From IMG/VR virus record IMGVR_UViG_2703718777_000017: a stretch of 8,517 bases of DNA; one strand, written 5' to 3'. A program made the translations under genes and the position numbers. The notes under the pieces are model-generated. The model was not told where the DNA came from, made no database searches, and saw only the letters and a list, made by a program, of their open reading frames with translations. The DNA is from a virus. Taxonomy: Duplodnaviria > Heunggongvirae > Uroviricota > Caudoviricetes. This document shows, one piece after another, positions 2,967 through 8,517 of the stretch (the stretch's first letter is position 1; the number at the start of each line of letters is the position of its first letter).

Positions 2967-4301
2967 ATGCGTTACAATCAATTTTCACATTACAAACGCT
3001 CCGACACTTTAGCCGGGGAGTTTATGAGATACAAGCCCAATCAATACATAATCTGTGATTCTTACGGTAACTACTATTTAAGGATCACGCTGCCTGTGTA
3101 TATGCAGCCCTTTTTTGAAGGAAAAAGGACGTTTGTCAGGAGTCTACATACAAGTAACCTTCGTGTTGCACGTAGAAAGCGTGATCAGATTGCAGATGAA
3201 TACCATTGTCTACGGGAGAGTGTCGCTCCTGTAAACAGCACAATAGAGAACACGCTGGAACTGTTACGCAGTAAGGCTAAATACGCCAAAACAGCTACCA
3301 GAATGCAAGATACAGCGTCTTCGTGTCCGTCATTGCTTAAAATTCTTGAAATCTACCTGACAATTAACAGCACGAAGAAGAAGCCAGCCACTTTAGCTAA
3401 GGCAAGAAAAGCGGTAGAGATGTTTCTCTCCTACCGTAAAAAGCCTGATATTGCATTGCAAGATGTAAGCCGCACCACTGTTACAGGCTGGATTGAACAC
3501 ATGCAAAAAACCCTTTCACAACAATCAATTGCAAATTATATCAGCCCAATGGCCCAGCTATGGGAGTTAGCTTCATCACGTTACCACGATGCACCAGAAA
3601 GGGCGCTCTCCCCCTGGCGAGGGCATAGGCTTGATGTGGCACAAAGTAGAGAGAGCTATGAGGCATTTTCTAACAAAGAGCTATTGCAGGTGTTGCAAGT
3701 ATTTTCCGGTAATTCAGCAGAAAACAAAGAAATGATAGCTTTGTGTCTTATCGGTGCTTATACAGGTATGCGGATCAATGAGATAGCAAGTCTCACAATA
3801 GACGATGTGAAAGAGATCGAAGGTGTGCTGTGTTTTGAAATCACACAGGGAAAAACGAAAGCTGCGGCACGTGTTGTGCCTGTGCATAGCCTTATCACTC
3901 CATTGGTGTTATCTCTTCGTGAAAAGCCTCACAATGGCTTTTTGTTCTATCACGCCAGCATTACAGAGCGTGCTGATGGTAAACGTTCCACGTGGCACAC
4001 GCAGAGATTTACAAGAGCTAAACGAAAGGCTTTAGGGGAAAAGGGAACAGAAAGGAAGGTGTTTCATTCTCTGAGACACGGAGTAGCACAGCTTCTTGAT
4101 CGAAATCAAATTCCAGAAGACAGGATCGCCCTTCTCCTGGGCCATACACGCGGCAATACAGAAACATTCCGCACATATAGCAAGAATGCAGCTTCTCCAG
4201 TAGAGCTTAAAAAATATATTGAGCTTCTACGCTACCCTGAAATAGAGAAAGGCTTATCAATCAATAAAAAATCAAATTTAAGGCGTAAAACAACGCCATA
4301 G
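2967..4301 (+). CDS. Tyrosine-type site-specific recombinase (phage integrase family), 444 aa; possible alternative start at 3024
   Basis: C-terminal catalytic signature: TGMRINE (Arg codon 3771-3773), then FHSLRHGVAQLL...LLGHTRGNTETFRTYSK, i.e. box II HxLRH at 4065-4079, LLGH, and catalytic Tyr codon at 4176-4178. An in-frame stop at 2946-2948 fixes the earliest start at ATG 2967, which lacks a good SD. The second in-frame ATG at 3024 is preceded by GGGGAG. Position next to the tRNA-fragment junction is typical of island integrases. Confidence 0.85.
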   Translation: MRYNQFSHYKRSDTLAGEFMRYKPNQYIICDSYGNYYLRITLPVYMQPFFEGKRTFVRSLHTSNLRVARRKRDQIADEYHCLRESVAPVNSTIENTLELLRSKAKYAKTATRMQDTASSCPSLLKILEIYLTINSTKKKPATLAKARKAVEMFLSYRKKPDIALQDVSRTTVTGWIEHMQKTLSQQSIANYISPMAQLWELASSRYHDAPERALSPWRGHRLDVAQSRESYEAFSNKELLQVLQVFSGNSAENKEMIALCLIGAYTGMRINEIASLTIDDVKEIEGVLCFEITQGKTKAAARVVPVHSLITPLVLSLREKPHNGFLFYHASITERADGKRSTWHTQRFTRAKRKALGEKGTERKVFHSLRHGVAQLLDRNQIPEDRIALLLGHTRGNTETFRTYSKNAASPVELKKYIELLRYPEIEKGLSINKKSNLRRKTTP

Positions 4302-4381: not shown

Positions 4382-5095
4382 CTATTCCTGTTTAAAGGCA
4401 GGAGTAATAGTGTCTTCACCTTCACTACTTGATTTTTCAGTGTTAACACGTTTTTTCATATTAGCCCCGATGTTCTTAGATGGCTGTGTTTTGATAGCTA
4501 CAGTGTTCACAGTGCCATAAGAAACTAATCTTATTTGCTCAAAGCTAAGATCAAATACCAGGGATTCGCTTGCCTCTTCTGTGTATTCGATTCCTGTTAA
4601 AACAACGTTCTCAAAAGTTTTATTTTCTGTAACAAGAAGAAAAGGCTGTCTACTGTCCATAATCTGATTCAGGTAGTCGATAGCTAATGATCTTCTGTTC
4701 CCGTTCACCCCTGCACTCTTTAACAAGCCAGGATCGCTTTTAATCGGTGTTTCAGTGATCCTTCCTTTAAGAGAAAACTTATTGTTTTTAATTTGAACGT
4801 GATCAGACACAGTAGCACCATTTTCTACGGGGTAGCTTGTAACATCTGCCGAACGTCTCACGTTCACATCGTCAACACTATCAAAGGCCAGTGCCATATA
4901 ATTTTCATAAACATCATTGCCAGAAGATGCCAAGCCACTGGTAACAATAGCAAATCCGTTCTCTCCTTTTGTTTTATTGGCTTTGCTATTTTCGTTTTTT
5001 GTAGAGTTTATATCTTGTTCTGCTTTGTAAACAGCCTGAACGTGTTGTTCTGGAGTATTTGCTGCACGTATGGTTAAAATCCCGGCGGTCGCCAT
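4382..5095 (-). CDS. Hypothetical protein, 237 aa (possible virion or tail-associated protein; function unknown)
   Basis: ATG at 5095 (minus) preceded by AAGGAAAA about 11 nt upstream. Last gene of the minus-strand array, ending 80 bp from the integrase stop. N-terminal K/N/S-rich low-complexity segment, then a segment with alternating hydrophobic residues (FLLVTENKTFENVVLTGIEY...LVFDLSFEQIRLV) suggestive of beta structure. No recognisable catalytic motif. Confidence 0.6.
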   Translation of the reverse strand: MATAGILTIRAANTPEQHVQAVYKAEQDINSTKNENSKANKTKGENGFAIVTSGLASSGNDVYENYMALAFDSVDDVNVRRSADVTSYPVENGATVSDHVQIKNNKFSLKGRITETPIKSDPGLLKSAGVNGNRRSLAIDYLNQIMDSRQPFLLVTENKTFENVVLTGIEYTEEASESLVFDLSFEQIRLVSYGTVNTVAIKTQPSKNIGANMKKRVNTEKSSSEGEDTITPAFKQE

Positions 5096-5129: not shown

Positions 5130-6959
5130 TTACCCGCCGTTGGATTGTCCTGATAAGCTGGTTAATGTTAATGATTTCAAGAAGCTATCCCGACTTGCTC
5201 TCGCTGTAAAATCCACATAATCGCTTAATCTTGATGTGTCTGAATTAATAGTAAGAGGAACCTCTGTTACCACTTCAAATGTAGGATTCAGATTAAACAC
5301 AGGAGATAAATTATAAGCCGGAGTTGTCATTGCAAGATTATTTAAAGCACCCTGTTTGAGATTGGTTATCGGTGCTTCGCTGACTGACATTTTTACATCT
5401 GACACAGAAGAATTATCATCGAAAAGCAATCCCTTAATCGTGTTAAAGAGAGAATGACTATTATCAGGTGTAGTTGTTGCAGTGCCAGCGCCTTTATATT
5501 GGTCAGGAACGAGATTAGAAAGATGCTGTTTCATCCCTTCATTGCTTAATGGCGGTGCATCACCTAAATTTTTCTGAATAGCATCTGTCTTATCATCATT
5601 ACGATTAAACCAGTTTACAATCTTCATAATAGCTTCAAAGAGACTTCCTACAGCTTCTCCCAGCTTCGTAAAATACGGAGTGAGATTAGAAAGGTTTTTC
5701 AAAAACTCTTCCGTTACTTTTGGATCGAGAGATTTCATAAAGCCGTCTACGAATGCTACTTGTCTTGCATCAGAAAGCTGTGAAAGCTGTCTGTTTAGTT
5801 CTCTGAATTTAACAATAGAGTCTTGCTGTGTTTCTGTTAGCCATTTTCCAGAGGCTTTTTGCTGATTAATACTTTCTTGTACATCTTTAACGGAACGTTG
5901 CCAATATTTTGACGTAAGCATCAAATCATCGCCCAGGTCTTCTAAACGTTGTCCAATTTGGGAGTCTGAAAACCCTTTTTTCATCATTCCATTAACAGCC
6001 TTAGAAATTAATCCAGCCGGATTATCAGCAAATTTTTTAAGGTCGCTTTTGTTAATAACACCGATGTTTAGAAGTTCATTAATAGCATTATCACCGCCTT
6101 TCCATTCAGATTTTCCGGTTTTCTTGTCTTTCACCAATTCAGCTTCACTGTAGGATTTTGCGGCACGTTCCCTAACATCTTTCATCTGATCCAGGTATTT
6201 CCTAGCCCCTTGATCACCCATCATAGAGTCAACGCCGTTTCTATAGGCCCATTCTGTAATGTTGTACATCTGGTTAACGTCTACACCGCCAAGCCTTGCA
6301 CGTTGAATTAGCTCTCCTTGTGTCTCAGCATTGGCAAAACTATTAGCCATAAATTCACCGGTTTTACTAACCGCCATCACGCCAGCAGCAGCCGTAGCGC
6401 CTCCAAATAACAGAGCGCCCATAGTGGCGGAATTCCCTGATCCTCCCTTAACGGGGGCTAATTGAACTTTTCTGTTGCCATTAATCTTACGTTGTTGTTG
6501 TTGTAAGCGTTTCATCTGGCTATTCATACGTGCAAGCGAGATAGCCCCTTGCTCATATTGTTTCGCTATCTCTCTAGCCTGTGCAATAGCTTTGTATTGT
6601 TCCGCTACAGAGAGGCGGTGCATTGCACTGATAGAGCTTGACACATCAAGGAGCTTTAATTCTGCTTTCTCTTTACGTGCTGCTATTTGTTGCTGTTGCC
6701 TTGCCTGTGCTCTTGCTGCGGCAGCTTGTGCTCTTTGATTCTGTTTTTCTGTTTTGGCTTTCTGTTGAGCAATCTTATCTACTTCGCTTTGTGCTTTCTT
6801 ATAGCCTTTAGTGACATTATCAAATCTTAATTTAGCTGGCTTGATGTTTTCTGCGAATTCCTTTAAGCCTGTAATAGAGTCTTTCGCTTTTTTCAAGCTG
6901 TCTTTATCTACACTAAATGTAACTGTGTTCTTAATTTTAGAAGTGTTAATTTCTAACAT
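5130..6959 (-). CDS. Large coiled-coil protein, 609 aa; tape-measure-like or internal virion (ejection) protein-like architecture, function unverified
   Basis: ATG at 6959 (minus) preceded by GGGGA with a 6-nt spacer, and only 18 bp after the stop of the upstream 66-aa gene, so an operon. The N-terminal ~170 aa is Q/A/R/K-rich, with heptad-like character (QKAKTEKQNQRAQAAAARAQARQQQQIAARKEKAELKL). A Gly/Ala hydrophobic segment (GGSGNSATMGALLFGGATAAAGVMAVSKTG) follows, then a long helical central region and an S/T/N-rich C-terminus. This arrangement is common in phage tape-measure and ejection proteins. The call is architectural, not homology-based. Confidence 0.7.
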   Translation of the reverse strand: MLEINTSKIKNTVTFSVDKDSLKKAKDSITGLKEFAENIKPAKLRFDNVTKGYKKAQSEVDKIAQQKAKTEKQNQRAQAAAARAQARQQQQIAARKEKAELKLLDVSSSISAMHRLSVAEQYKAIAQAREIAKQYEQGAISLARMNSQMKRLQQQQRKINGNRKVQLAPVKGGSGNSATMGALLFGGATAAAGVMAVSKTGEFMANSFANAETQGELIQRARLGGVDVNQMYNITEWAYRNGVDSMMGDQGARKYLDQMKDVRERAAKSYSEAELVKDKKTGKSEWKGGDNAINELLNIGVINKSDLKKFADNPAGLISKAVNGMMKKGFSDSQIGQRLEDLGDDLMLTSKYWQRSVKDVQESINQQKASGKWLTETQQDSIVKFRELNRQLSQLSDARQVAFVDGFMKSLDPKVTEEFLKNLSNLTPYFTKLGEAVGSLFEAIMKIVNWFNRNDDKTDAIQKNLGDAPPLSNEGMKQHLSNLVPDQYKGAGTATTTPDNSHSLFNTIKGLLFDDNSSVSDVKMSVSEAPITNLKQGALNNLAMTTPAYNLSPVFNLNPTFEVVTEVPLTINSDTSRLSDYVDFTARASRDSFLKSLTLTSLSGQSNGG

Positions 6960-6977: not shown

Positions 6978-7178
6978 TCATTTTTTACCACCTTCTTTGC
7001 TTAAGAAATGGTGTAGAGCCTGATCAATACTCTCGTTTAGTCTGAACATACGGGCTTTTACTCCTTCATATGGAACATCTAAGAGAGAACATAGATATTT
7101 CAGATTTAACAAGCCTCTAGAATCATTAGCATCTAAATGTACGTGTACACCATTTTTTGATTTCAGAATCACTTCCAT
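6978..7178 (-). CDS. Small hypothetical protein, 66 aa
   Basis: ATG at 7178 (minus) preceded by GAGGTGA with a 7-nt spacer. It sits directly downstream of the terminator that follows the capsid-like gene and is tightly coupled to the 609-aa gene. Basic C-terminus (KEGGKK). Function unknown. Confidence 0.5.
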   Translation of the reverse strand: MEVILKSKNGVHVHLDANDSRGLLNLKYLCSLLDVPYEGVKARMFRLNESIDQALHHFLSKEGGKK

Positions 7179-7211
7179 ATTTTAATCACCTCTCAAAATT
7201 TAAAAATAAAT

Positions 7212-7248
7212 AAAAAAAGGCGAAGCGTGTTATTCACGCCACGCCTCT
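7212..7248 (-). terminator. Rho-independent terminator immediately downstream of the capsid-like gene
   Basis: On the minus strand the transcript reads as a GC-rich hairpin (GGCG-UG-GCGUG-AAUAA-CACGC-UU-CGCC) followed by UUUUUUUAUUUAUUUUU; on the plus strand this is the A-run at 7212-7218 preceding the stem. It begins 17 nt after the stop codon of the 342-aa gene (7265-7267). Confidence 0.6.
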
Positions 7249-7264
7249 ATTACACGTTAAAATA

Positions 7265-8293
7265 TTATTTAACAGTGATTTGAACGGAGAAGCCAACGCC
7301 GTGGTTTACAACCATCTGGCTATTCTCTGTAACAACGTTAACAGCATCACCACGAGAAGATTCATAGCTGTAGCTATACACCTCAGCAGGAGCGGCATTG
7401 ATCAGTTCAAAGGTGCTGGAAGCAGCCCCGTAGATGTTCTGATATACATTAGAGCCTTTAGCAAACTTCGGAACCGCTACAGCGTCTGCGGTCATATGTG
7501 CAAGGTGTAGCGGATCTACCAGTTTAACAACATCAATGTTAGTTCCTGGAATAGTGAACGCTGTCACCCCCGGTAGCAGGTCACGACGCTGATACACAAC
7601 GTTCCCTTCTTCCAGTGGGCTTACATACTGGAATGCGTTTGCCATACCCGCAGAGAATCGAATTGCAGAGAAGGCTTCAGGTTTACAGAACACAACAACA
7701 CGCTCAATGGTTGCAGCCTGTTTTTGTGCCTTAGCAATCATATCCGTAGCAATCTGATCAAATTCTTTAAAAATCTTCGTGGTGTCAGTGCTGGAAGCGT
7801 TCACAGTGGCTTTCATAGCTGATACGTTAAACAGCTTGCCCCATTCGATAAGAACATCATCAGTTTTAGGCGTGTAAGTTTTACCGCTAAACAGAGATGC
7901 AGCCAGCACGCTCTCTTTTGTACGCTGATACGCTACGTGGTGTTTAGCAACATAGTCAGCATAGATATCAGTGAGTGTTTCCTGAAAATCAGTGCCAGGC
8001 TTACGCTTGCCTTGAACATCAGAAGGACGGATCACATCTTCACGAAGAAAATACGGGATTTCAATAAGCCATTCTTTACCTTGTTCTCGCTTAGTAACGT
8101 TGTGTTCAGAAGAGAAACGAGAGGTTTCTTTGTTAAAGAGAGATTCGTTGCTTTCGACAAGCTGGGAAACAGCTACTTTATGAGAACTAACGCCCACCGG
8201 ATCAGTGAAGTCGAGGGTAGAGAGCAGAAAGTTACGCGTGCTGTGTGTCTGGAAAAGCGGAGCTAAATCAACGTAATCATTACCTAGAATCAT
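7265..8293 (-). CDS. Putative phage major capsid-like protein, 342 aa (family assignment tentative)
   Basis: ATG at 8293 (minus) preceded by AAGGAA with a 6-nt spacer, 15 bp after the stop of the upstream partial gene. Followed by a strong intrinsic terminator, as expected for an abundantly expressed structural gene. The segment IERVVVFCKPEAFSAI resembles, from memory, the DRVFYCDPDSYSAI segment of T7-type (HK97-fold) major capsid proteins. Size is typical of HK97-fold capsid proteins. No search or structure prediction was possible. Confidence 0.6.
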   Translation of the reverse strand: MILGNDYVDLAPLFQTHSTRNFLLSTLDFTDPVGVSSHKVAVSQLVESNESLFNKETSRFSSEHNVTKREQGKEWLIEIPYFLREDVIRPSDVQGKRKPGTDFQETLTDIYADYVAKHHVAYQRTKESVLAASLFSGKTYTPKTDDVLIEWGKLFNVSAMKATVNASSTDTTKIFKEFDQIATDMIAKAQKQAATIERVVVFCKPEAFSAIRFSAGMANAFQYVSPLEEGNVVYQRRDLLPGVTAFTIPGTNIDVVKLVDPLHLAHMTADAVAVPKFAKGSNVYQNIYGAASSTFELINAAPAEVYSYSYESSRGDAVNVVTENSQMVVNHGVGFSVQITVK

Positions 8294-8308: not shown

Positions 8309-8517
8309 TTAAGAAGTGAAAACAGAATGGAACCCTTCAAGCTGAAAGCCTTTTTTAATTAATGCTGTTTTTGCTGCTTCACTTACAGCATTCAGGGCAT
8401 CAGCTTTGATGCATACAAGCCCAGCATTGCTACGTAGCACATCTACAGGCTTGTTTTCCCCAGCCGTTACAAATTCACTCAGAACAACATTGATCTTACC
8501 CAGCAATAGTGGACACG
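8309..8517 (-). CDS. Hypothetical protein, C-terminal part only (gene starts beyond the window); possibly a scaffold or head-associated partner of the capsid-like gene
   Basis: The minus-strand frame is open from the window edge (8517) to TAA at 8309-8311. The ORF track's start at 8506 is a TTG and probably not the true start. Stop is 15 bp upstream of the capsid-like gene's ATG, so co-transcription is likely. Confidence 0.5.
   Translation of the reverse strand, partial: CPLLLGKINVVLSEFVTAGENKPVDVLRSNAGLVCIKADALNAVSEAAKTALIKKGFQLEGFHSVFTS

Follow-up and report, generated by a model that had tools for sequence, protein, structure and literature searches.

The window analysed here, i.e., the whole 8,517-nucleotide stretch of IMG/VR virus record IMGVR_UViG_2703718777_000017 (Caudoviricetes), carries an open reading frame (ORF) at positions 7265-8293 of the minus strand, within a few kb of a tyrosine integrase gene. 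A preliminary description had taken its product for a capsid-like protein with a motif of the T7 type, and the locus raises the question of which kind of capsid protein this is and which kind of element carries it beside an integrase. We show that the product of the ORF is a true major capsid protein with an HK97 fold, a member of the Phage_cap_E family whose nearest characterized relative, as judged by profile comparison, is gp124 of phage phi92, and that the gene lies in an island integrated at the tRNA-Thr gene thrW, not in a prophage. The capsid gene by itself is ordinary and is already annotated as ‘major capsid protein’ in RefSeq; its setting is probably a new kind of phage satellite.

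The ORF is intact, with 342 codons, an ATG start and an AAGGA ribosome-binding site, and its product is complete in length, its homologues having 342-345 aa. Residues 23-341 cover positions 18-329 of the 329-position Pfam model PF03864 (Phage_cap_E) with 52.3 bits, against a gathering threshold of 22.9 bits; the same domain is carried by all homologues, and in PHROGs the protein falls into family 29, major head protein. When a profile of the family, built from 24 homologues, was compared with solved structures, it matched capsid proteins only. The top match was phi92 gp124 (3e-18, full length), followed by 9zbi (2.5e-16) and then by the capsid proteins of PhiTE, Bas63 and Sf14. By hhalign, this profile aligned with gp124 over 323 columns at a probability of 98.5%, and did not match lambda gpE at the sequence level. 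An AlphaFold model of the protein was of moderate confidence (predicted local distance difference test, pLDDT, 59.8; predicted template modelling score, pTM, 0.60), with a confident core and a poorly defined N-arm and E-loop. The predicted fold is of the HK97 type, which comprises an N-arm, an E-loop, a P-domain with spine helix and an A-domain, and a structure search with the model returned HK97-fold shells only. Myovirus capsid proteins were closest in that search, the ICP1 capsid protein (PDB 8g1r) being among them. The whole-model family match, the profile comparison and the HK97-like predicted fold all uphold the capsid-like nature first proposed for the 342-aa product.

Among 1.84 billion representative proteins, 32 relatives of the capsid protein were found at E <= 1e-30 and 243 at E <= 1e-3, and all of those that are named come from Enterobacterales chromosomes. 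The best match across 50,697 phage records was 24-25% identical, with none closer than about 25%, and the protein is about equally distant (22-25%) from phi92 gp124 and from other myovirus capsid proteins. A capsid gene with 73% identity was also present on a 9.4-kb contig (JAEWTL010000083.1) binned into a ‘Bacillota’ metagenome-assembled genome; this label most likely results from the misbinning of an Enterobacterales contig.

The extent of the carrier element could be read from complete genomes. In the copy of the island carried by E. coli strain fEC.1 (NZ_CP085638; locus L002), 28-nt direct repeats at 19959-19986 and 32311-32338 lie 12,352 bp apart, one of them being the 3' end of thrW, and the island is thus a discrete element of 12.35 kb. 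In the window, the corresponding attachment (att) repeat, a copy of the thrW 3' end, marks the island-chromosome junction at 2861-2885. It is followed on the plus strand by the island's tyrosine integrase gene at 2967-4301 (PF00589; RefSeq start at 3024), 2.96 kb from the end of the capsid gene, so that the proximity of an integrase noted in the preliminary description is confirmed. The element therefore has its own integrase and its own att sites. Its further content comprises a 223-aa HTH_36 protein, a serine invertase, eight small proteins and one block of structural genes, in which only three virion genes are recognizable, i.e., those for the capsid, tape measure and tube initiator proteins. 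Comparison of the island's ORFs with Pfam and PHROGs revealed no portal, terminase, protease, sheath or tube gene, for which there would also be no room; the set of virion and packaging genes is incomplete. An intact temperate prophage with terminase, portal, full tail, lysis genes and lysogeny switch was considered and rejected for this 12.35-kb element.

The HTH_36 protein matches PHROG replication-initiator families (4e-12), and its gene adjoins about 1.8 kb of non-coding DNA in which, at L002 29692-29832 of fEC.1, five copies of an iteron-like repeat with a unit or spacing of about 24 nt and the core TTGATAGGGGTA were found. These repeats look like the iterons of a replication origin, and the island is predicted to have its own replication module. 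The same non-coding region is adjoined by the gene for the serine recombinase (L002 30466-31005; 179 aa), which matches the PHROG DNA-invertase family (E 1.3e-54). An Rfam scan of the island returned tRNA only, and NCBIfam gave nothing informative on it.

The island belongs to a family. Its gene order, i.e., p62-p71-rep-p91-p136-p121-p70-p120-capsid-s66-tape measure-(tube initiator)-integrase, recurs completely or in large part in Escherichia, Klebsiella, Serratia, Buttiauxella, Kluyvera, Scandinavium and Citrobacter, at integration sites other than thrW in at least Klebsiella and Serratia. Every island has a capsid and a tape measure gene, whereas only some lineages have the tube initiator gene. 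The island or parts of it were detected in 601 of 5426 complete E. coli genomes (about 11%). Matches in IMG/VR are nearly all prophage calls from isolate genomes and are uninformative on packaging.

The capsid gene is under strong purifying selection, with a ratio of non-synonymous to synonymous substitution rates (dN/dS) of 0.058 between the window and the 96%-identical fEC.1 copy; for the neighboring genes the ratio was 0.16 (tape measure), 0.067 (tube initiator) and 0.015 (integrase). In the same comparison, dS was 0.29 for the capsid gene and three- to fourfold lower (0.07-0.11) for these three neighbors, an excess which suggests that recombination has swapped the capsid gene between island lineages.

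A further family feature is the intrinsic terminator behind the capsid gene. The strong terminator reported there in the preliminary description is real: at about 7205-7248 of the minus strand, starting 14 bases past the capsid stop codon, a GC-rich hairpin of 13 pairs, GAGGCGUGGCGUG-AAUAA-CACGCUUCGCCUU, is followed by a U-run and separates the capsid gene from a small gene, s66, and the tape measure gene. The hairpin has a free energy of -20.6 kcal/mol (z = -4.1), a stability that none of 200 shuffled sequences reached. A GC-rich hairpin with a T-run occupies the same position in all 11 related islands examined, with differing hairpin sequences. The terminator probably sets a high ratio of capsid to tail proteins.

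The structural block of the island resembles that of phi92 in gene order. By cryo-electron microscopy, phi92 gp124 was identified as the T=13 capsid protein, gp123 as a beta-tulip cement protein, gp134 as the trimeric tape measure protein and gp135 as the adjoining hexameric tube initiator (PMC13450770). The island genes p120, capsid, s66, tape measure and tube initiator are collinear with phi92 genes 123, 124, (125-133), 134 and 135. The capsid protein and gp124 are similar in length (342 versus 333 aa) and align end to end including the N-arm and the strand-turn-helix motif, which reads RIVALCSREFFASL in phi92. In both, the capsid gene is immediately preceded by a small gene and immediately followed by a terminator. 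The HK97 fold is common to gp124 and its PF03864 relatives, i.e., the capsid proteins of Bas63/Felix O1-like phages, PhiTE and ICP1, and lambda gpE. In contrast to these likenesses, identity is only 22%, and the phi92 genome is virulent and 148 kb in size whereas the island is an integrated element of 12 kb. The gp124 shell has T=13 (PMC13450770), and the 12-kb genome of the island would need a much smaller one.

The two tail genes are closer to phi92. The tape measure homologue (5130-6959, minus strand; 609 aa; PHROG 16051, E 8.8e-54) is homologous end to end to the 659-aa gp134 (BLASTP E 8e-34) and lacks part of the coiled coil present there. Over its first 66 residues it shares 55% identity with gp134, rising to 71% over the first 42 residues in the fEC.1 copy, and its C-terminal tail is conserved. 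The tail tube initiator homologue (4382-5095, minus strand; 237 aa; Pfam Dit_like) is 60.5% identical to gp135. Phage homologues of these two proteins are found only, or are closest, in virulent phi92-like myoviruses of about 145-150 kb (Stephanstirmvirinae). By tblastn, the tape measure protein matched 134 phage records, nearly all of them phi92-like phages of about 130-150 kb, as judged from name or genome size and including a few filed under other host names, and the tape measure and tube initiator genes of divergent islands still found phi92-like phages only.

We are moderately confident that the island is a phage satellite, as yet undescribed, whose helpers are virulent phi92-like myoviruses. 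This reading fits best because the element is compact, bounded by att sites, predicted to replicate and unable to form a virion alone, and yet holds homologues of three virion parts that are under selection. More tentatively, and as a proposal that we find slightly easier to doubt than to accept, the islands would form an Enterobacterales family of satellites on virulent Stephanstirmvirinae of about 150 kb, contributing, unlike any described satellite, both a capsid and a tape measure protein of their own and often a tube initiator, taking the portal, terminase, sheath, tube and baseplate from the helper, and yielding small-headed chimeric virions. Under the satellite reading, infection by a phi92-like phage would cause the island to excise and replicate and to express the operon p70-p120-capsid-(terminator)-s66-tape measure-tube initiator, in which the terminator would ensure that far more capsid protein than tail protein is made. 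The island capsid protein would form a head with room for 12 kb, smaller than the T=13 head of the helper, and the helper would contribute its portal, its protease or scaffold, and its terminase, sheath, tube and baseplate. The island's tape measure and tube initiator proteins would enter helper tail assembly by means of their helper-like N- and C-termini, and a likely side effect would be that helper production is disturbed.

Several points weigh against the satellite reading. The assignment of phi92-like phages as helpers is drawn from homology, and induction of the island, its packaging and its transfer by a helper are steps that we infer. The 22% identity between the capsid protein and gp124 puts the fit with a helper portal or scaffold in doubt, and the structural model of the capsid protein is of only moderate confidence. 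Neither a small terminase nor a pac or cos site, a capsid-size factor or a helper-sensing regulator could be recognized within the island, and the eight small proteins have no recognizable family or function. The structural operon apparently has a near-consensus sigma-70 promoter, in itself no sign of helper-dependent expression: in fEC.1, such promoters (TTGACA, 17 nt, TAATAT/TAATAA) were found at L002 26300-25990 and 28770-28620, ahead of the structural operon and of the early small genes. Finally, the copy in the window is damaged. In a strain identical to the window (locus L001), an IS3 element just beyond position 8517 (L001 25658-26820) splits p120, the replication-initiator-like gene is annotated as frameshifted (L001 28760-29448), and the att repeat beside the integrase gene has lost 3 nt (TGC) relative to fEC.1. 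This deletion could impair excision, and the island copy in the window has probably lost its function. A promoter motif shared between the island and phi92 intergenic regions was considered and dropped; both are sigma-70-like (TTGACA/TATAAT) and do not discriminate.

Comparison with known satellites places the island apart from each of them. As Carpena and colleagues reportedly found in 2016, the Ccm protein of cos satellites of the SaPIbov5 type is a homologue of the helper's HK97-fold capsid protein and gives small capsids. Ccm differs from the island protein in that it belongs to Gram-positive hosts and temperate helpers and acts together with the helper capsid protein. Among the systems known to us or met in the literature, satellites with virulent helpers occur in Vibrio (the phage-inducible chromosomal island-like element, PLE, with ICP1, and the PICMIs) and in Streptomyces. 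PLE is not known to encode a capsid or tape measure protein of its own. Like the island, the PLE of Vibrio cholerae is a small integrated satellite, dependent on the virulent myovirus ICP1 of about 126 kb and packaged in reduced capsids (PMC12772148); unlike the island, it redirects the helper's capsid protein via an external scaffold (title of PDB 8g1r). Capsid-forming phage-inducible chromosomal islands (cf-PICIs) share with the island an integrated state, a size of about 12-15 kb, an integrase and replication module, an HK97-fold capsid protein of their own and the use of helper tails (PMC12772148). They differ in that their head and packaging module is complete (portal, protease, connectors, small terminase) and tail genes are absent, whereas the island has a tape measure and a tube initiator gene and no portal, protease or terminase. 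Of the complete head and packaging module that defines a cf-PICI, it holds the capsid protein only. The known helpers of cf-PICIs are temperate phages of about 40 kb, whereas the phage homologues of the island genes lie in virulent 150-kb myoviruses.

Full-text searches of the literature on satellites of phi92-like, rV5-like or virulent coliphages yielded no description of such an element, which does not prove its absence; a commentary on jumbo-phage satellites (PMC12772148), a paper on tail interference by Tai (PMC11364771) and one on an O157 Sakai prophage concern other elements. Nor did we find a report of a toolkit of capsid, tape measure and tube initiator that omits portal and terminase. 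If true, the satellite reading would add E. coli to the hosts of satellites with virulent helpers. The phi92-like phages, its presumed helpers, are being gathered as candidates for phage therapy and biocontrol, and the island is present in about 11% of complete E. coli genomes; in that case it could affect phage efficacy and gene transfer during treatment. Since public collections already hold strains and phages that carry both partners, the idea is directly testable.

The main rival to the satellite reading is a role in decoy or defence, in which the three homologues of a domesticated island would poison the assembly of phi92-like phages as dominant-negative subunits and the island itself would not be packaged. 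We regard this as unlikely, though deserving of real weight. Purifying selection on the genes and the apparently strong sigma-70-type promoter of the structural operon would suit it; the helper-like termini of the tape measure protein and the 60% identical tube initiator would permit co-assembly, and defence by interference with tail assembly has a known precedent (PMC11364771). However, ten island proteins compared with the PADLOC defence models gave no match, and the islands have kept integrase, att sites, iterons and replication initiator and occur in different genera, at other sites in Klebsiella and Serratia at least. Retained mobility genes together with a spread over several genera make a pattern typical of a mobile element that needs packaging. 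A decoy effect is also compatible with the satellite reading, since satellites usually interfere with their helpers as well.

We give little credence to the idea that the island is the inert remnant of a prophage that decayed at thrW, its capsid gene surviving by chance. The site itself invites this explanation, thrW in other E. coli strains being a home of cryptic prophages such as CP4-6 in K-12, and so do the IS3 insertion, the frameshifted rep gene of the window copy and the want of a complete morphogenesis module. However, the same compact gene order is kept across seven genera in an island measured at 12.35 kb, all four genes tested have a dN/dS well under 1, and in fEC.1 the att repeats are intact and the iterons present. 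No traces of portal or terminase pseudogenes were seen in the island, and the 50,697 phage records contain no full-size phage with a close relative of the capsid protein. Simple prophage decay is thus unlikely in view of conserved synteny and selection.

The motif on which the T7 comparison had been built, IERVVVFCKPEAFSAI (capsid residues 196-211), does resemble T7, whose gp10A contains DRVFYCDPDSYSAI at the equivalent position. By BLASTP, residues 166-232 align with residues 172-239 of gp10A (69 residues aligned, 30% identity), at an E of 5e-4 that refers to a single pairwise comparison. In the model, the motif forms a strand (196-203), a turn and a helix (205-212), and the sequences of phi92 and 9zbi are similar there. 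Only its Arg and Phe are invariant across the capsid family, and the T7-like Cys-x-Pro-Glu is restricted to the Escherichia branch. T7 gp10A, which shares the HK97 fold, belongs to a different Pfam family, PF21703 (Gp10A-like; 6.5e-115), to which the island protein gave no match at E <= 0.1; by hhalign, the family profile aligned with gp10A over 30 columns only, at a probability of 0.9%, and T7-like capsids rank lower structurally against the model. A podovirus neighborhood, with a scaffold gene upstream and tail tube A/B and internal core genes downstream, was not seen, and the genes downstream are homologues of myovirus tape measure and tube initiator genes. A T7-type (Autographiviridae) capsid gene in a temperate, integrase-encoding phage, in favor of which one could cite the local match around the motif and a terminator placed like T-phi after T7 gene 10, is refuted by the family assignment and the profile comparison and strikes us as extremely improbable, so that of the preliminary interpretation the HK97-fold capsid stands and the T7 type falls.

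The remaining features of the window flank these genes. Positions 1-2738 are E. coli chromosome, consisting of the 3' end of paoC, paoD and a 136-codon LysR-family fragment annotated as a pseudogene, and foreign DNA follows this flank; the chromosomal part marks where the thrW integration hotspot ends on its far side. The window stops within p120, a conserved gene of about 120 aa that immediately precedes the capsid gene and takes the position of the phi92 cement protein gene; its 3' part is at 8309-8517 of the minus strand. BLASTP found no similarity between p120 and gp123, and an AlphaFold2 model of p120 was unusable (pLDDT 45, from a shallow alignment of 7 sequences). In the preliminary description, a scaffold or prohead protease had been envisaged for this upstream gene; no Pfam or PHROG match supports either. 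Between the capsid and tape measure genes lies s66 (6978-7178, minus strand), which encodes a conserved 66-aa protein found in Klebsiella, Serratia, Buttiauxella, Kluyvera, Citrobacter and Scandinavium. It has no Pfam or PHROG match and no similarity to phi92 gp133.

When the eight small proteins of the island were joined and compared by tblastn with all phage records, one marginal match was obtained, that of p71 (71 aa; L002 28235-28450) to a hypothetical protein of phages muut and inny (E 7e-3; 43% over 44 residues). Both are E. coli phages of about 146-147 kb that carry a phi92-type tape measure or tube initiator gene, and p71 might act as a regulator common to the island and its presumed helper. 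Several records of about 148-151 kb with phi92-type tape measure or tube initiator genes also stand under unlikely hosts, such as Campylobacter phage B15 and Acinetobacter phage vB_AbaM_ABPW7, and their host labels are probably wrong.
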